Source: a virus
Taxonomy: Duplodnaviria > Heunggongvirae > Uroviricota > Caudoviricetes
Direction: 5' to 3' (one strand)
IMG/VR virus record: IMGVR_UViG_2778261184_000015
Span: 1 to 6,574 of that record
DNA length: 6,574 nucleotides
Below the pieces are notes generated by a model. The model was not told the origin of the DNA, did not search any database, and saw nothing but the letters and a program-made list of their open reading frames with translations. Every line of letters begins with the position of its first letter. Position 1 is the stretch's first letter. Both the position numbers and the translations under genes were made by a program. Shown piece by piece: positions 1 through 6,574 of the stretch.

Positions 1-201
1 TTACCCATTGGCGCGGCTTAAGAGCTTATTTTTGAATTCACAATGGTCACGATATAACCATCTTGCTCGTCCGTGGATAACTTTGGCTTTTGGCAGGTCT
101 CCGGACTTAATCCGGTCGTAGATGAAGGTTTTACCAAAGCCAGTATCAGCCATGATGAATTTCAAATCAACCAGTGAATCAGGTTGTAGTTCGTGTTGCA
201 T
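1..201 (-). CDS. Excisionase / AlpA-family helix-turn-helix DNA-binding protein (66 aa)
   Basis: Minus-strand ORF with ATG at 199-201 and GGAG about 10 nt upstream. The pattern L..L..I...TG.....IY..I..G.LP..K...GR.RW fits the phage AlpA/Xis winged-HTH family as I recall it. It sits at the distal (left) end of the leftward operon, where xis sits in lambda. The integrase would lie beyond the window start. Confidence 0.75.
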   Translation of the reverse strand: MQHELQPDSLVDLKFIMADTGFGKTFIYDRIKSGDLPKAKVIHGRARWLYRDHCEFKNKLLSRANG

Positions 202-243
202 GAGTGCTATCTCCGAATAGGGAATCGAACCTGCAAATCAGGC

Positions 244-267
244 AATAAAAAACCGCCATCAGGCGGC
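244..267 (-). terminator. Candidate intrinsic terminator (minus-strand orientation)
   Basis: On the minus-strand RNA: GCCGCC-UGAU-GGCGGU stem-loop (5 G:C pairs plus one G:U) followed by UUUUUAUU. The stop codon of the upstream small ORF (259-261) lies in the loop. On the plus strand the hairpin is not followed by a clean T-tract. Confidence 0.5.
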
Positions 268-441
268 TTGGTGTTCTTTCAGTTCTTCAATTCGAATATT
301 GGTTACGTCTGCATGTGCTATCTGCGCCCATATCATCCAGTGGTCGTAGCAGTCGTTGATGTTCTCTGCTTCGATAACTCTGTTAAATGGCTCTCCATTC
401 CATTCACCTGTAACTCGGAAGTGCATTAGTGATTTCTCCAA
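259..441 (-). CDS. Hypothetical small phage protein (55-60 aa)
   Basis: Minus-strand ORF from the track. The codon at 439-441 is TTG; the first ATG is at 424-426 with GGAG about 9 nt upstream, so the likely product is about 55 aa. No recognisable family. The 3' end overlaps the terminator hairpin. Confidence 0.45.
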   Translation of the reverse strand: MEKSLMHFRVTGEWNGEPFNRVIEAENINDCYDHWMIWAQIAHADVTNIRIEELKEHQAA

Positions 442-461
442 AAGATGCTTGAGTGCGCTTC

Positions 462-773
462 TTATTCGATTCGCACACCTGGTATTTCGCCTTTTGATAT
501 TGCTAAGTCATAAATTTGCGCAGCACTATACCCATCTCGCATCCATGAATCTAATGCGCGAATAGCCTCGTTACGCTTTTTATCTTCTCTCTCATTTTTG
601 ATATCAACGAGGACATCAACGCAATTAAGGCAAATGTGGATTTTGTCCTTACATTCGATCATGGCTGCTTTACCATGATTTACTCCACACAGTGAGCATA
701 AATCTTCAGGGTCTAGCTGGTATTTCTGTAACGTTAGAGGGTTGAATGTTGAACAGACCATAATCATCTCCAT
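462..773 (-). CDS. Hypothetical zinc-ribbon protein (CxxC-x18-CxxC), about 99-103 aa
   Basis: Minus-strand ORF. Cys26-x2-Cys29 and Cys48-x2-Cys51 form a classic four-cysteine zinc-ribbon spacing. The start is probably the third in-frame ATG (759-761), which has GGAG 6 nt upstream; the first ATG at 771-773 has a weak SD. Confidence 0.6.
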   Translation of the reverse strand: MEMIMVCSTFNPLTLQKYQLDPEDLCSLCGVNHGKAAMIECKDKIHICLNCVDVLVDIKNEREDKKRNEAIRALDSWMRDGYSAAQIYDLAISKGEIPGVRIE

Positions 774-798
774 AAAACAAAACTCGCCGTAGCGAGTT
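771..798 (-). terminator. Candidate hairpin/attenuator directly upstream of the zinc-ribbon ORF
   Basis: Perfect 7-bp inverted repeat aactcgc/gcgagtt (781-787 and 792-798) with a 4-nt loop. On the minus-strand RNA the hairpin is followed by UUGUUUUAUG, which runs into the start codon. Weak as a terminator because the U-tract is interrupted. Confidence 0.3.
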
Positions 799-840
799 CA
801 GATAAAAGAAATCCATCAATTGGTTAGGGTTTTTGTAATT

Positions 841-1032
841 CTACGAATTATGTTGTTTTTTAGCTTCAGCTTTCCATTCATCAAAGGCAGTGTCTTTGTT
901 CATGGTGCTGATATTGATCTTACGGTCAATATCATATACACGCCACTCACCGTTAGGCCTCTCTTCGCATCTAACTAAGTATGAATTGCCATTAATATCT
1001 ATGCGTCTGTCTATTTGCATGAACATTTTCAA
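841..1032 (-). CDS. Hypothetical small phage protein (about 61-63 aa)
   Basis: Minus-strand ORF. The first codon (1030-1032) is TTG with GAGGA 8 nt upstream; the first ATG is two codons in (1024-1026). No recognisable family. Confidence 0.5.
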   Translation of the reverse strand: MKMFMQIDRRIDINGNSYLVRCEERPNGEWRVYDIDRKINISTMNKDTAFDEWKAEAKKQHNS

Positions 1033-1189
1033 TTTTCGAATCCTCTTTAATATGCATTTTTTGCTATTTCAGTAGTTTACTATTGATGAGGCGTTATTAT
1101 ACACACTTCATTAATGCAAGCATCTTTATGCTATGCTACTAATTTAGCAATTGATATTCACCTTTATCGCGTATACCTTTACCGGCTTA

Positions 1190-1426
1190 TCACCGAAGTG
1201 GGGGGTGTGTGATTGTTTTCACTTCATATCCTCCATACGGAACATCAATTCTGCGACTGGAGTCGTCGCGCTTCGGATATCCCTTTGTGATAATCAGGCG
1301 GTCATACTCCCGGAACATAATTCGCTTATTCCAATAGTCATTACACAGGCGATACTCTTCCGTTTTCTCTCCTCGAATCATGGCATCGAAGTATTCACCT
1401 TTGACGGCAAGTTGTAGGTTAGCCAC
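1190..1426 (-). CDS. ASCH / DUF3850-like small protein (78 aa)
   Basis: GTG start at 1424-1426 with a strong AGGAGG 6 nt upstream. The N-terminal pattern K-x-E-Y-F-x-A-h-x-x-G-x-K-T-x-E-x-R-x-N-D resembles the DUF3850/ASCH family consensus as I recall it. Overlaps the upstream Lar gene by 8 nt. Confidence 0.65.
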   Translation of the reverse strand: MANLQLAVKGEYFDAMIRGEKTEEYRLCNDYWNKRIMFREYDRLIITKGYPKRDDSSRRIDVPYGGYEVKTITHPPLR

Positions 1427-1721
1427 GGTTAACCTCCTGCGGAGTAGCCTTTACAAGCACTGGTGCAAATCCATCTTCATTAAGGTTATGAATATAGACT
1501 TCTGTTCTCCTGCGCTCTTCAACGTTTAATATTGTTTCTGGATCATAAACCCATACTTTCATTCGACTATTCCATGAAGAAATCGCTTCAGATCTAGTTC
1601 GTTTTTCTGGTCCTTGGGCACCACATTTGCATGACACATAGCGCATTTTCCCTCTGATACTGAATGAGTATCCGATGTTAAGCACAGTGGAACCACAGAA
1701 TGGGCAGCGATATAGATTCAT
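1419..1721 (-). CDS. Lar-family restriction alleviation protein (100 aa, zinc ribbon)
   Basis: The N-terminus CPFCG...(x)...CKCG...W fits the Lar/RalR family pattern (Rac RalR is about 64 aa). This protein carries an extra C-terminal segment of about 40 aa. Its ATG overlaps the upstream stop as ATGA. Confidence 0.7.
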   Translation of the reverse strand: MNLYRCPFCGSTVLNIGYSFSIRGKMRYVSCKCGAQGPEKRTRSEAISSWNSRMKVWVYDPETILNVEERRRTEVYIHNLNEDGFAPVLVKATPQEVNRG

Positions 1722-2359
1722 AAATCATCCACCTTAGGCGCAGCTGAGACAGCAACATTCCAGAACTCAGAAAACATATTGTATGCACCAGATAGATTGG
1801 AAGTGGCATACCCTCCAAGCTCACTTCTAATCTGAACGGCTCTCATCATTTCCGGTGTTAACTCCTTCGGCACCATAACCCAACCATCCGGAGTTACCGG
1901 AGAGTTGCCATCCAGCGCGTTCAACTTGTAAGCCTGGCTTACAAGTTCGGCTTCCAGTTCTGCTATGCGCTTCTCTGATGCTTCAAGTAACGCCTGCTTA
2001 TCGCGTAGCGCTTCTTCCAGTTCAGCAACATGGCACTCACTATCAATAAGGTTGTTCTCTGCGGCTTCCAGCTCAACACGCAGCTTCCCTACCGTTAGCG
2101 CAATATCCTCGTTCTCCTGATCGCGGCGTTTTATGTATTGCTGGTTTCTTTCCCGTTCATCCAGTAGTGCCAAAGCAATCTTTGGATTAAAGGCAGCAAT
2201 AAATTCAGCGTTGTTTTTCAGAACGTGTTGCGCAATGGCCTGACTACTTAGTCGGACCTCATAACCACGTGCGCCACGGTGTGGTTTATATGAGTCCCAG
2301 TCTCCCCACGTTGCCTTCTCTGCCGCCTCACGCAGTGCCTGATAGTCAATCTTGCTCAC
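1718..2359 (-). CDS. Ead/Ea22-like family protein (213 aa)
   Basis: GTG start overlapping the upstream stop (GTGA). The N-terminal motif QALREAAEKATWGDW and the central coiled coil (AELEEAL...AELEAEL) are typical of enterobacterial prophage Ead/Ea22-like proteins. Its position matches lambda ea22. Confidence 0.8.
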   Translation of the reverse strand: MSKIDYQALREAAEKATWGDWDSYKPHRGARGYEVRLSSQAIAQHVLKNNAEFIAAFNPKIALALLDERERNQQYIKRRDQENEDIALTVGKLRVELEAAENNLIDSECHVAELEEALRDKQALLEASEKRIAELEAELVSQAYKLNALDGNSPVTPDGWVMVPKELTPEMMRAVQIRSELGGYATSNLSGAYNMFSEFWNVAVSAAPKVDDL

Positions 2360-2856
2360 TGGTTGCCTCCTTTGCGAAGCTGGTCGGCGAACAAACGTAC
2401 ACTAGACGCTTCACTGCGTAGAAACTTAACGGCATAATCAAAACCACCTCGTTCTGCGTCGTCTGCTCCGTTGTCGAGGTTATCTGCGTACATCTCTACC
2501 CCCTGCGCCCGTACTTCAGCCAGGAAAGCATCGGTGGCTGGGGTTTCCGTGAAGTTGTCCTCCCAACCGTAGTACTCCTGACGACAGAAGTTATTAAATT
2601 CCTTCTCCGACTGTTTAAGCGCCGCATTCTCCGCCGCCAGCGCCGCGCACTTGGCTTCAAGGTTATCAATCGTGATTCCGGAAGAACGACACTCACGAAA
2701 CGCCGTTTCCAGTTTTGATTCAAGTTCACCGAACTTACGCACCAGATATTCAGCGTTTGTTTCGTTAACCTTTAAATCACTTGGGATGCATTTACCTTTC
2801 AGAAAACCATCCATCTCAATTAGTGTCATTTGTTTCATTTCTTCCCACTCCGCCAC
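2356..2856 (-). CDS. Ea22-like family protein, second paralog (160-166 aa)
   Basis: The ORF opens with GTG at 2854-2856, but the ATG at 2836-2838 (Met7) has GGAG/GGGAAG upstream and forms an ATGA overlap with the stop of the upstream small ORF, so 2838 is the more likely start. Coiled-coil middle ([12 protein letters not shown]) and conserved-looking C-terminus ([21 protein letters not shown]). Confidence 0.75.
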
Positions 2857-3017
2857 ATCGCATTCAGATATTTGTTTTGATTCACTGATGGAAAAGAATT
2901 TCTCTTAAGCAATTCATCTCTCGATGGCATTGGCTTTACGCGTTGGCGAATAATCATTTCTGCCGGAAGAATGCCGGGATTGTATGCAAGTCCTCTCATG
3001 GTAAATTCCTCAGTCAT
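2835..3017 (-). CDS. Hypothetical small protein (60 aa); frame shared with track ORF 2835..3152
   Basis: ATG at 3015-3017 gives [60 protein letters not shown]. Its stop forms an ATGA overlap with the Ea22-like ATG at 2838. No clear SD. The longer track version would overlap the 98-aa ORF for about 140 nt and is less plausible. Confidence 0.4.
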
Positions 3018-3306
3018 TACTGATAGCGCCATAGCGTGAGCGGTAATTACGCAGGCGCGGGTCGATATATTCAGGGAAGTGGGTATATGTGGCTTTGCGG
3101 AATGGTCGGATTGATGTCTGGTAAATTCGCTCGCGTTCTTCTTTCTCTGCAAGCCATATACAATGGCGAAATTCCTTTTCCTCTTTCGTTTCCTGCGGTA
3201 GCGACATTATCCGATCGTAGTTTTTTCTGAATTTATCCAGCACCTCCGATACGGAATTGCCGGAACAGCGGCGCGGGTCATCTGCACCATACTGAGGCGC
3301 TGGCAT
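3010..3306 (-). CDS. Hypothetical phage protein (98 aa)
   Basis: ATG at 3304-3306 with AGGAG 6 nt upstream, 13 nt after the SSB stop. Charged, protein-like composition. No family recognised. Confidence 0.65.
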
Positions 3307-3319
3307 GATTTTCTCCTGA

Positions 3320-3835
3320 TTAAATTGCGTGAATAGCGTGACGAGGGAAGGGGAGAGTTACTGGTGCAAAGGGGATATCGTCGTCAAAATCCATAGGTGG
3401 TTCGCTGTGATTTCCCTGCTGCTGAGGTTGCTGTCTTTGTTGCTGACCATTATTTCGCTGAGGTGAAGACTGTTCATTGCCTCCTTGCTTGCCACCAAGC
3501 ATTTGCATGGTTCCACCAACGCCCACGATGACTTCGGTAGTGAACCGATCCTGTCCGCTTTGATCCTGCCATTTTCTTGTCCGCAATTTTCCTTCAAGAT
3601 AAACCTCAGAGCCTTTTCGCAGATATTCGCTGGCAATTTCTGCCAGTTTCCCGCTCATTACCACGCGGTGCCACTCCGTCTGCTCCTTTTGCTCTCCAGT
3701 TTGCTTATCACGCCATTGTTCTGACGTAGCAACTGTAAGGTTTGCAAATGCCGTTCCTGATGGTGAATATCTGATTTCTGGATCATGCCCAAGGCGACCA
3801 ATAATGATCACCTTATTTACGCCTCTGCTTGCCAT
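3320..3835 (-). CDS. ssb: Single-stranded DNA-binding protein (SSB) with 15-aa C-terminal extension
   Basis: The N-terminal OB-fold region is near-identical to E. coli SSB as recalled ([10 protein letters not shown]..., [34 protein letters not shown]). It has a short Gly/Gln-rich linker and the acidic tip MDFDDDIPF. Here the reading frame continues past IPF for 15 codons ([15 protein letters not shown]) before TAA at 3320-3322. The ATG immediately follows the annealase stop (TAAATG). Confidence 0.95.
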
Positions 3836-4543
3836 TTATGCCGCCTGTTTTAGCTCGTTAACTCTGATGTTCATTACCTGAACGCATTTAGCCTGCGCCT
3901 CCTCGTTTCCAGCCATTAATTGCCAGTCATGCTGATAACGCTCGATGAGTTTTTTCTTGTCAGTTTCTGTCGCTGCATAATCGCTGAAGTCTTTCAGGAT
4001 TTGTTCGCAGTCAACCGATGGAGATTTCTGGTTGGTATTTTCTGGTGATGGTTTGTTATCTGATGCTGGGATTGCCCAGCCTGGCAGCGATGGAGGGAGC
4101 CAGTAAAATCCTGTTCCATCCTTGAGTTTTGCCCTGTGCCATCCCTGCTTTTTGTCGAGAGATGTTTGTGCGAAACCTTCCTCAAGGTTATACAGATACC
4201 GACCTATTCCCCATTGAACGGCAGCACGCTTCATTGCACCGGAACGACCACCTTTTACTGCTTCTACCTGCGTGTTTTCAGCGGCATCCCATTTGGTTAC
4301 CCATTCGGAATCAATCTTGATTGATATGCCGCATTCAACTCCGCCGTTGTTGGGAATATCGCGGTATTCATTGCGCCATCCTGCTTTGCCGCAAACATCG
4401 TCCAGGCGTTTCATGATTGCCCGGTTCGTGACATAAGCCAGCACCATAGCCCACACTTTGCCATCGCGTGTTTTACCGCTTTGCTGTATTCGCCATTCGA
4501 TATCTTCAGGGCTGAATGGCTCATCGAATTTGTTCAAATCCAT
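3836..4543 (-). CDS. Rad52-family single-strand annealing protein (Sak-like recombinase, 235 aa)
   Basis: The N-terminal pattern F.PE.IEWR.Q..G......WA..LAY...R.....LD.V.G..GW...Y fits the Rad52/Rad22 N-terminal fold pattern as I recall it from human Rad52 and phage Sak. GAGGTG lies 7 nt upstream of the ATG at 4541-4543. It occupies the position of bet/recT. Confidence 0.85.
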   Translation of the reverse strand: MDLNKFDEPFSPEDIEWRIQQSGKTRDGKVWAMVLAYVTNRAIMKRLDDVCGKAGWRNEYRDIPNNGGVECGISIKIDSEWVTKWDAAENTQVEAVKGGRSGAMKRAAVQWGIGRYLYNLEEGFAQTSLDKKQGWHRAKLKDGTGFYWLPPSLPGWAIPASDNKPSPENTNQKSPSVDCEQILKDFSDYAATETDKKKLIERYQHDWQLMAGNEEAQAKCVQVMNIRVNELKQAA

Positions 4544-4551
4544 AATTCACC

Positions 4552-4722
4552 TCAGAATGGACACGGCCCAAGGAAATAACGCTGATTTAATACTTCGACT
4601 CGGGACAAATTAAGGCATACCCGCATTCCTTCGCGGTCACCATTATGGCGAAACCAGAGAGCTTTCTGCGTGTACATGCGCCTCTGTAACTTGCTCTCCT
4701 TCACTGTGGTTGCAAGTGACAT
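4552..4722 (-). CDS. Small ORF (56 aa), not in the supplied track
   Basis: Hand-translated: MSLATTVKESKLQRRMYTQKALWFRHNGDREGMRVCLNLSRVEVLNQRYFLGPCPF. ATG at 4720-4722 with a strong AAGGAG 6 nt upstream. The stop is 8 nt before the annealase ATG. Overlaps the 52-aa ORF in another frame. Confidence 0.45.
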   Translation of the reverse strand: MSLATTVKESKLQRRMYTQKALWFRHNGDREGMRVCLNLSRVEVLNQRYFLGPCPF

Positions 4723-4801
4723 GAATATCTCCTTCGTTACCGATTAAATCTTTCATCTGACGAATGAATTCTTCGTCTGACCAGTTATCTGTAAAACTCA
4801 T
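4643..4801 (-). CDS. Small acidic ORF (52 aa), not in the supplied track
   Basis: Hand-translated: MSFTDNWSDEEFIRQMKDLIGNEGDIHVTCNHSEGEQVTEAHVHAESSLVSP. Its ATG (4799-4801) overlaps the stop of the Kil-like ORF as ATGA with AGGA upstream (translational coupling). Overlaps the 56-aa ORF by 80 nt in a different frame. Confidence 0.35.
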   Translation of the reverse strand: MSFTDNWSDEEFIRQMKDLIGNEGDIHVTCNHSEGEQVTEAHVHAESSLVSP

Positions 4802-4950
4802 TTCCTGCGATACCACGGAAGGTTGATAGCTGATTTCATCGCTTTATTTGCTTCAAGCCACATTTTGGAATCACCAATAAATCTGGCTATTACTGCTTTG
4901 TTCTGTGCAGCACGAAGCATCTGGTGATTGATGGCTATTTCATTGCGCAT
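4798..4950 (-). CDS. Kil-like small protein (50 aa), candidate host cell-division inhibitor
   Basis: Hand-translated: MRNEIAINHQMLRAAQNKAVIARFIGDSKMWLEANKAMKSAINLPWYRRK. GAGG lies 7 nt upstream. It overlaps the 3' end of cIII by 16 nt, as kil does in lambda. The motif IA.FIGD.KM..EA resembles my recollection of lambda Kil. This is unverified. Confidence 0.5.
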   Translation of the reverse strand: MRNEIAINHQMLRAAQNKAVIARFIGDSKMWLEANKAMKSAINLPWYRRK

Positions 4951-5066
4951 AATAAGACCTCAACTCTTTTCCATCCGTCACGTAATTTACGGGTGATTCG
5001 TTCAAGTAAAGATTCATTTAATTGGAAGGCACCCATGCGAGCGCCTCCCGCGATTGCGTAAATCAT
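4935..5066 (-). CDS. cIII: CIII-like protein (43 aa), FtsH inhibitor / CII stabiliser
   Basis: Hand-translated: MIYAIAGGARMGAFQLNESLLERITRKLRDGWKRVEVLLCAMK. From memory, lambda CIII begins MQYAIAGWPVAGCPSESLLERITRKLRDGWKR, so the N-terminus and the ESLLERITRKLRDGWKR core match. The C-terminus is shorter and different. AAGGA lies 8 nt upstream of the ATG at 5064-5066. Confidence 0.8.
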   Translation of the reverse strand: MIYAIAGGARMGAFQLNESLLERITRKLRDGWKRVEVLLCAMK

Positions 5067-5090
5067 GGGTGGTTCCTTATGTTGGTTTTA

Positions 5091-6059
5091 TTAGTAGGTT
5101 ATTTTTGTTGCGAATACTTCGCCTTTTACGATGGCTGTTATGATATTTTTAGCAACATCTTCTGATGCGCCAACCTTGATAAGGTCAGCAAGTATTTTGT
5201 TATTTACTTCTTTCCGGTGAGCTTTATCCTTTGCTCTACGCTCTTCTTCTTCCTTGATTCTTTTTTCTTCTGCTATTCTGGCTTGCTCTTTTGCTTCAGC
5301 CTCGCGCCGGATTCGTTCAGCCTCCTCCTGTGCTTTTCGGCGTTCTGCTTCAATTGCCGCCTGCTTTTCTCTTTCAGCTCGTTCTGCTGCCTCTTTTGCT
5401 TCGCGCTGTGCTCGTTGCTCGGCTTCAATGCGTTCACGCTCTGCACGTTCCGCTGCGGCCTTAGCTTCTGCTTCTCGCCTTGCTGCTGATTCAATTTCGG
5501 CTTTTGCCTTTGCTTCGGCTTCTGCTCTGGCTTTCTCTTCAGCTTCTCTTTTTAAGCGTTCTTCATGCTCTCGCTTTTCCTGCTCCGCTTTGAGTCTTGC
5601 CTCTTCTCTTTGGCGGTCAAATTCGCGATCCATCAAAATAGCTATTTCATGATCAGACTCAATTTGCTTTGCGAGAGCTTCAGCTGCTGCCTTAGCTTCT
5701 TCTTCGGCTTTAATCCGCGCCTGTTCCTCCTCATAATCAGTAAGAGGCTGGCGAGCCTTGGCTTTCAGTTCATCAAGGCGATCGCGCACTGTCTTGCGGT
5801 TGGCATCAATTAGCTTTGGAATTTCCTTCAGTTCAGCAACAAGGTCTTTGCCAAGACCATCGAGATATGTTTTCGTCTGCGCAACTTTATACGCCAGAGA
5901 AGCAATCTCCTTTCTGCCCTTTGCCGTTGTGATATCAGGCACAAAGGACATAACTTCACGTTCAACCTTTTGGAGAATTTCTTCAATCTGGTCGGCAGAC
6001 TGAAATACAGTCATTGCATTTGCTTTTTCAATAACAACTAAATCTGTTACTTCACTCAT
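5091..6059 (-). CDS. Phage coiled-coil protein with long ER/K-rich helical segment (322 aa); family uncertain, possibly DUF1351-like
   Basis: ATG at 6057-6059 with GGAGG upstream. An N-terminal region of about 100 aa and a C-terminal region of about 40 aa flank roughly 175 residues made almost only of E, A, K and R (EAEAKAKAEIESAARREAEAKAAAERAERE...). The family call is from memory only. Confidence 0.85.
   Translation of the reverse strand: MSEVTDLVVIEKANAMTVFQSADQIEEILQKVEREVMSFVPDITTAKGRKEIASLAYKVAQTKTYLDGLGKDLVAELKEIPKLIDANRKTVRDRLDELKAKARQPLTDYEEEQARIKAEEEAKAAAEALAKQIESDHEIAILMDREFDRQREEARLKAEQEKREHEERLKREAEEKARAEAEAKAKAEIESAARREAEAKAAAERAERERIEAEQRAQREAKEAAERAEREKQAAIEAERRKAQEEAERIRREAEAKEQARIAEEKRIKEEEERRAKDKAHRKEVNNKILADLIKVGASEDVAKNIITAIVKGEVFATKITY
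5220..5750 (-). repeat. Low-complexity coding repeat (GAA/GCA/AAG/CGN-rich codons) encoding the ER/K segment
   Basis: The plus strand here is strongly pyrimidine-biased with short reiterated units (gcttc, ctctt, ttctgc). It generates three overlapping spurious ORFs in the six-frame track. Confidence 0.6.
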
Positions 6060-6070
6060 ATATCCTCCGT

Positions 6071-6099
6071 CAAAAAATTGCCCTCACACTGGAGGGCAA
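6071..6099 (-). terminator. Intrinsic terminator (minus-strand) immediately upstream of the 322-aa gene
   Basis: On the minus-strand RNA: 8-bp stem UUGCCCUC / GAGGGCAA with loop CAGUGU, followed by UUUUUU. The RBS and ATG of the 322-aa gene begin within about 10 nt. The plus strand has no downstream T-tract. Confidence 0.55.
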
Positions 6100-6159
6100 A
6101 GAAGATTTCCAATAATCAGAACAAGTCTGCTCCTGTTTAGTTACGAGCGACATTGCTCC

Positions 6160-6187
6160 GTGTATTCACTCGTTGGAATGAATACAC
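6160..6187. repeat. Perfect 9-bp inverted repeat gtgtattca / tgaatacac with 10-bp spacer
   Basis: Seen directly in the sequence between the two terminator hairpins, in a region with no convincing ORF. Confidence 0.4.
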
Positions 6188-6210
6188 AGTGCAGTGTTTA
6201 TTCTGTTGTT

Positions 6211-6241
6211 TATGCCAAAAATAAAGGCCGACTATGCGGCC
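6211..6241 (-). terminator. Intrinsic terminator (minus-strand) abutting the IS1 end
   Basis: Stem GGCCG / CGGCC (6226-6241) with a 6-nt loop, followed on the minus-strand RNA by UUUAUUUUU (6211-6225). The IS1 left end begins 3 bp away. Confidence 0.5.
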
Positions 6242-6298
6242 TTGGTGATGCTGCCAACTTACTGATTTAGTGTATGATGGTGTTTTTGAGGTGCTCCA

Positions 6299-6574
6299 GT
6301 GGCTTCTGTTTCTATCAGCTGTCCTTCCTGCTCCGCTACTGAAGGCGTGGTGCGTAACGGCAAAAGCACTGCCGGACATCAGCGCTATCTCTGCTCTCAC
6401 TGCCGTAAAACATGGCAACTGCAGTTCACTTACACCGCTTCTCAACCCGGTACGCACCAGAAAATCATTGATATGGCCATGAATGGCGTTGGATGCCGGG
6501 CAACTGCCCGCATTATGGGCGTTGGCCTCAACACGGTTTTACGTCACTTAAAAAACTCAGGCCGCAGTCGGTAA
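6299..6574 (+). CDS. insA: IS1 InsA (91 aa), transposition regulator and N-terminal part of the InsAB' transposase
   Basis: The 91-aa product [89 protein letters not shown] matches IS1 InsA with two substitutions relative to the copy I recall (D to E, I to V). The stop is at 6572-6574. Confidence 0.95.
6548..6556 (+). other. IS1 programmed -1 ribosomal frameshift site (TTAAAAAAC, the A6C slippery motif)
   Basis: The motif sits in the insA frame as L-K-N near the insA 3' end, where the IS1 frameshift that produces InsAB' is known to occur. Confidence 0.7.

Follow-up and report, generated by a model that had tools for sequence, protein, structure and literature searches.

The IS1 copy at the right end of the window (the whole 6,574-nt stretch of prophage DNA analyzed here) abuts a spacer carrying hairpins of the lambda tL2 type, and by comparison with related prophages this position would lie in the middle of the early-left operon, downstream of N and nutL. 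On balance, the element was probably acquired recently by a simple, near-neutral insertion that N-modified RNA polymerase would read through. The insertion is an ordinary event of an already known kind. Prophage early regions often acquire IS elements, and prophages are well known to decay in this way. The case is of little consequence outside annotation, where the correction is that the site is mid-operon at a tL2 cluster, as judged from homology, and that simple polarity arguments do not apply to it.

The left part of IS1 and its insA gene

The last 331 bp of the window (6244–6574, plus strand) represent the left part of an IS1 element, and the window ends within the element, at the insA stop codon. 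The left terminal inverted repeat (IRL), GGTGATGCTGCCAACTTACTGAT, was read directly at 6244–6266 (plus strand). The same sequence forms the first 23 nt of the IS1 of the E. coli CE20 prophage (L001), a 768-bp copy bounded by a 9-bp target duplication, and comparison with this duplication-flanked copy therefore fixed the first base of the window IS1 at 6244. The insA gene (6299–6574, plus strand; 91 aa, GTG start) was identified as an ORF reading away from the prophage operon, and its product matched PF03811 (Zn_ribbon_InsA, E 3e-21) and PF12759 (HTH_Tnp_IS1, E 4e-31), both well above the cut-offs. The A6C motif, whose role in the programmed −1 frameshift from insA to insAB' is established for IS1, was read directly at 6550–6556 (plus strand); annotated IS1 copies bear the note "programmed frameshift". 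The insB' part, with the DDE transposase domain, would follow beyond the window.

When complete E. coli genomes were searched, the segment 6244–6574 matched annotated IS1 in 5152 of 5426, with an identity of ∼95–99.7% to annotated IS1A/IS1B copies among the matches listed, and the best match was at least 99% identical in 96 records. The window IS1 is 96.7% identical to the complete L001 copy. It differs from a second IS1 on its own contig at 12 of 331 nt (96.4% identical), with three InsA substitutions (D15E, I80V and F81L). The exact InsA sequence was found in 275 blocks of a public collection, and several copies were present in each of two long-contig assemblies. By these comparisons, the window IS1 is a known minority isoform (InsA E15, V80, L81) that is already present in many public genomes.

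The original prediction had placed the left end of a variant IS1 at 6244, ∼185 bp from the first operon gene, with insA directed away from the operon. The end was confirmed by the IRL, the InsA domains and the annotated IS1 matches, the distance by a minus-strand gene start at 6059, and the direction by the plus-strand position of insA relative to the minus-strand genes; that the copy is a variant is correct but trivial. An ORF of 106 codons (6137–6457, minus strand) was also observed, which begins inside IS1 antisense to insA, crosses the IRL and the adjacent hairpin and extends into the spacer; the IS1/spacer junction most likely created it by chance.

The tL2-type spacer and its place in the leftward operon

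The first gene to the left of IS1, which is the first of the operon within the window only, is an ORF on the minus strand (5091–6059) encoding a 322-aa coiled-coil protein homologous to that of Sf6 gene 33; its start lies 185 bp from IS1. No Pfam family was matched by this protein, which has a very high content of E, A, K and R (coiled-coil repeat). Its exact sequence occurs in 381 blocks of the public collection, under labels that vary between records (TolA, "coiled-coil domain-containing", Sf6 gene 33). The remaining delayed-early leftward gene string (1–5066, minus strand) was defined by ORFs and Pfam matches, which confirmed cIII, Kil, a Rad52-type annealing protein, SSB, the anti-RecBCD protein Abc2, DUF2737, Ea22 (213 aa) and a Lar-like protein (100 aa), and it also holds small ORFs. 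At its far end lies the gene for a 66-aa excisionase (1–201, minus strand) of the type annotated TorI in relatives. No disrupted genes were noticed in 1–5066, and the window from 1 to 4801 is 99.9% identical to L030, a prophage that retains its repressor and replication genes.

The 184-nt spacer between the gene start and IS1 (6060–6243) is more than 95% identical, over its whole length, to the lambda ea10–ral intergenic region (lambda 33905–34086), and it also aligns with the matching spacers of Sf6, mEp234 and many prophages. As judged from these alignments, it is the homologue of the lambda ea10–ral region that carries the tL2 terminators. The minus-strand RNA of 6060–6250 folds into three strong hairpins (z = −6.2 vs shuffles). 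The outer one, detected by the terminator scan (6214–6243, minus strand; stem 6224–6243, U-tail 6214–6223), is terminator-like and is predicted to terminate leftward transcription. Its stem abuts IS1 and its GGCC core ends 2 bp from the element, so that the distance is 0–2 bp according to where the stem is taken to end; a terminator hairpin had been predicted 3 bp from IS1, and of this the minus-strand hairpin was recovered, with the distance to be corrected. The inner intrinsic terminator, found by the same type of scan (6068–6099, minus strand; stem 6078–6099, U-tail 6068–6077), is the homologue of Sf6 tL2A and adjoins, on the upstream side, the ribosome-binding site of the 5091–6059 gene. 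The Sf6 record labels the inner hairpin "homology to phage lambda; tL2A" and assigns most of the spacer to the boundary sequence bsq4, and in the mEp234 record both hairpins are annotated as rho-independent terminators. Between them the fold revealed a long central hairpin (6160–6187, minus strand) with a 12-bp stem that is conserved in lambda, Sf6 and mEp234. An Rfam scan of the whole window gave no match at E values up to 1, so the structured spacer falls outside the described RNA families.

The outer hairpin is also an exact mosaic boundary: in the collected loci, GGCCG-ACTAT-GCGGCC is followed by at least six unrelated sequences, and the window IS1 sits exactly at this boundary. A hybrid outward promoter at the IRL was considered and rejected, as TTGGCA is followed, after a 17-nt spacing, by TAGTCG, which has a 2/6 "−10" and lies inside the hairpin. 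A promoter scan of the minus strand of the window found nothing.

The gene orders of the relatives were used to place this spacer within the operon. In Sf6 the order is pL, nutL, gene 37 (N), 36, ral, 34, spacer and gene 33; in mEp234 it is pL, N, gene 034 and then the spacer; and in lambda it is the pL operators, nutL, N, sieB, ral, spacer and ea10. On the lambda map, ∼1.5 kb thus separates pL from the site downstream of it. The repressor gene lies to the right of the site in all IS1-free relatives examined, including these three phages, and also in L001. In the IS1-free prophages L002, L003 and L006–L015 it is found 1.7–3.5 kb to the right, and an N-family gene plus one to three variable accessory genes occupy the interval where they are recognizable. 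Wherever they are annotated or recognizable in the relatives, pL, nutL and N lie to the right of the homologous point. The homology of the spacer, together with the Pfam matches of cIII and Kil, ties the window to the lambda tL2–cIII–kil early-left (pL) unit.

By homology, then, the IS1 site is a mid-operon one, downstream of N and nutL, and the element would separate the promoter from genes of one and the same transcription unit. The original prediction was right that IS1 is upstream, in the leftward sense, of the cIII–kil–recombination–ea22–xis string, as the Pfam matches of the window genes show. The comparison with IS1-free prophages that it proposed, once run, placed the element at the edge of the tL2-type spacer in mid-operon. 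This runs against its view that IS1 was inserted at the promoter-proximal end, since pL, nutL, N and the accessory genes are on the right in the relatives, and against its view that the operon is cut off from its antiterminator, since N and nutL are upstream of the homologous point, barring a deletion. Its argument from strong polarity is likewise not supported, because the downstream genes already stand behind two intrinsic terminators and would depend on N regardless of IS1.

Read-through, polarity and deletion

A minority-isoform IS1 would thus have transposed into, or would now end at, the upstream edge of a tL2-type terminator cluster. With a simple insertion, the upstream part of the operon would be undisturbed and would supply N, and polymerase starting at pL would be N-modified at nutL, ∼1–2 kb before IS1. 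The antiterminator would load before polymerase reaches the element, because nutL and N are upstream of the site in the relatives. Such a polymerase would then read through IS1, as it would through the two intrinsic terminators just downstream, and the comparison with relatives suggests that it would not be sensitive to termination at the element. Resistance of N-modified polymerase to Rho-dependent polarity, that of polar insertions included, is textbook knowledge; N reportedly releases polarity, and N-modified polymerase is likewise said to resist the polarity of polar insertions. With a polymerase insensitive to IS polarity, a simple insertion should cost little. The left genes would be N-dependent with or without IS1, given the two intrinsic terminators in front of them, and IS1 would add only a small effect on the expression of cIII, kil, the recombination genes and xis once the prophage is induced. 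As long as the lysogen is repressed, the operon would be silent anyway. The insertion would then be a recent, near-neutral event and not a regulatory device, a reading favored by the intact appearance of the genes to its left.

Two prophages support a simple insertion. In L001 (NZ_CM188248.1), IS1 occupies 9296–10063, after the equivalent of window position 6194 and thus 50 bp to the left of the window site; it has the same orientation as in the window, is flanked by a 9-bp duplication (CACAGTGCA), and is followed by an intact right side with ral, a 101-aa gene in the N position and the repressor. In L038, IS1 is cleanly inserted, in the opposite orientation, in sieB of an otherwise intact prophage. 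Phage SfIV (L036, KC814930) was induced and formed plaques despite an IS1 at 6001–6768, between Q and the lysis cassette, next to two low-GC genes on the opposite strand that its authors termed a moron. SfIV may serve, circumstantially, as a natural example of an IS1 that costs little, since this depends on where its late promoter lies relative to the IS1.

It has also been proposed, in essence by the original prediction, that a simple insertion silences cIII, kil, the recombination genes and xis by Rho-dependent polarity even after induction and thereby immobilizes a complete prophage. IS1 is classically polar in both orientations, no outward promoter was created at the IS1 junction, and Rho-dependent termination has a precedent at KplE1, which shares the chromosomal site and a TorI-type excisionase and whose maintenance is reportedly controlled in this way. 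In confirmation, Rho inhibition is reported to raise the KplE1 copy number. Against polarity, every relative that has a recognizable N carries both this gene and nutL upstream of the insertion point, and N-modified polymerase is the very case known to withstand Rho-dependent polarity. For unmodified polymerase, IS1 adds nothing to the N-dependence that two intrinsic terminators already impose. Moreover, the KplE1 precedent does not transfer, because KplE1, a remnant of presumably 10 kb, lacks both N and the immunity region. Silencing by polarity is therefore considered very unlikely.

The simple insertion with N read-through must also be weighed against a deletion, and here the source contig bears on the argument. 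The contig NLVY01000081.1 (GCA_002511845.1; L027, 14,989 bp) was retrieved through the Ea22 protein of the window and is 100% identical to all 6574 bases of the window; the Lar-like protein occurs too widely to be of use for this purpose. The contig terminates inside IS1 at both ends and extends only ∼130 nt beyond the window within the window IS1. As this short-read contig is broken at IS1, the right half of the element, the target duplication and the right flank are absent from the assembly, and what IS1 separates cannot be read from the window sequence. From the 9-bp duplication of the L001 IS1, the left copy of the target-site duplication is expected to be TGCGGCCTT at 6235–6243. An exact search with the left junction (41 nt) gave no match in genome_contigs, viral_contigs and metagenome_contigs, and a search of the same three public collections with the right inverted repeat (IRR) of IS1 joined to TGCGGCCTT gave chance matches only, all in what is probably a secA-type gene from a Betaproteobacteria MAG and its metagenome contigs. 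Neither the junction nor the exact gene mosaic was present in complete E. coli genomes, where the best match reached 85% coverage at 97.9% identity, and the junction was not found among phage records. Two contigs (L028 and L029) stop 1–3 bp short of the junction. They were not taken as the same insertion, because the spacer recurs in different prophages and marks a boundary of the mosaic, where assembly could stop in any case.

Beyond xis, the source contig carries dsdC, dsdX, dsdA, emrY, emrK and evgA (L027 6867–14542). We take this dsdC–dsdX–dsdA–emrYK–evgA neighborhood to be the site of the K-12 remnant prophage KplE1/CPS-53. Since the TorI-type excisionase gene adjoins these genes, the prophage is assigned to that site, and the best explanation of the window element is an Sf6/P22-like prophage at the KplE1 (argW–dsdC) site of an E. 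coli or Shigella strain. The integrase gene is expected at the far end of such a prophage, not beside xis. The second IS1 of the contig (L027 14598–14966) belongs to a different isoform and lies ∼55 bp after evgA, at the place of the evgS start in L028 and L029; the source strain has probably lost an intact EvgS sensor kinase. The presence of IS1 at both ends of the contig suggests that the source genome is IS1-rich.

Alternatively, IS1 might mark where a deletion or rearrangement mediated by IS1 stopped, after pL and N had been lost together with the immunity, replication and late regions. The window would then hold an orphan early-left operon in a KplE1-like remnant, physically severed from its promoter and antiterminator, in which any read-in transcription would be halted in IS1 or at the two intrinsic terminators. 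Several observations are in line with such a loss. In L032, the IS1 (5130–5897, after window-equivalent 6200) has no target duplication, and its right side has been replaced by ISKpn26 and unrelated genes; this IS1 sits 13 bp past the central hairpin, and that of L001 sits 7 bp past it. In L031, the immunity region is gone, and three IS1 copies and fragments of ral are present. Among complete E. coli genomes, four IS1 copies were found in or next to the interval, two of them simple insertions and the other two tied to loss of the immunity region. The source contig has IS1 at both ends, the second one just after evgA; the same InsA isoform is multi-copy in two long-contig assemblies; and the K-12 remnant KplE1 occupies the same chromosomal site. 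The O157-type prophages L017, L019 and L023, with IS3-family elements in the interval and rearranged right sides, point in the same direction. However, the genes to the left of IS1 show no sign of damage and share 99.9% identity with their counterparts in complete prophages, so any deletion would have to be recent, and the simple insertions in L001 and L038 show that an IS1 in the interval need not mean a deletion. We regard a deletion as less likely than a simple insertion but as a real possibility. If it did occur, kil would be silent and the TorI-type excisionase unexpressed, and the prophage would be silenced and locked in place through the deletion and not through polarity; the original prediction would then be right in its conclusion, by another route. 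If, as the preferred reading of a simple insertion has it, the right flank is intact, the strain would be well suited for testing, in a natural setting, whether N allows read-through of IS1.

Other IS copies were also examined across this interval. Three independent IS1 junctions (6243/6244 of the window, L001 and L032) lie within 50 bp of the spacer, and in all three insA is directed away from cIII and kil. When a chimeric query carrying IS1 in the inverted orientation was used, the only inverted copy detected was the one in sieB, with none in the spacer; these numbers are too small to interpret. With three junctions among thousands of genomes, the clustering is not significant. We consider it very unlikely that the outer part of the spacer (6185–6243, 60 bp) is a preferred landing pad of IS1 in lambdoid prophages and that selection favors its occupation with insA outward, as a form of domestication in which kil and xis are shielded from read-in transcription and which frequently precedes an IS1-mediated loss of the immunity region. 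In the O157-type prophages L016, L017, L019 and L023, IS3-family transposase genes (385–404 aa) lie beside sieB in the N-to-cIII interval, ∼0.4–1.8 kb upstream of a 286-aa gene-33 homologue. The right side is rearranged in L017, L019 and L023, where the IS adjoins genes of the nin group or cII. IS1 is therefore not the only element to accumulate in the N-to-cIII interval and to be accompanied there by rearrangement.

Comparison with known systems

The window IS1 shares with the IS1A/IS1B-type elements of E. coli and Shigella the IRL, the zinc-ribbon and HTH domains of InsA and the A6C motif; it shows no difference in kind from this family and is distinct only as a minority isoform. The spacer on which it borders corresponds to the ea10–ral region of lambda and to bsq4 plus tL2A of Sf6, at more than 95% identity over the full length, and its outer hairpin resembles Sf6 and L002, not lambda, in loop and arm. 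To the right of the spacer, IS1 takes the place held in the relatives by an accessory gene such as ral or gene 34. L001 has the same spacer, the same IS1 orientation and a recombination string that is 97.4% identical over window positions 3320–6194, but its insertion is an independent event, 50 bp further to the left, with a visible CACAGTGCA duplication and an intact right side. With KplE1 (CPS-53) of K-12, the window element has in common the chromosomal neighborhood and the notion of a prophage held in its site by termination ahead of xis; it differs in having the full early-left gene set, whereas KplE1 is a remnant that lacks N and the immunity region.
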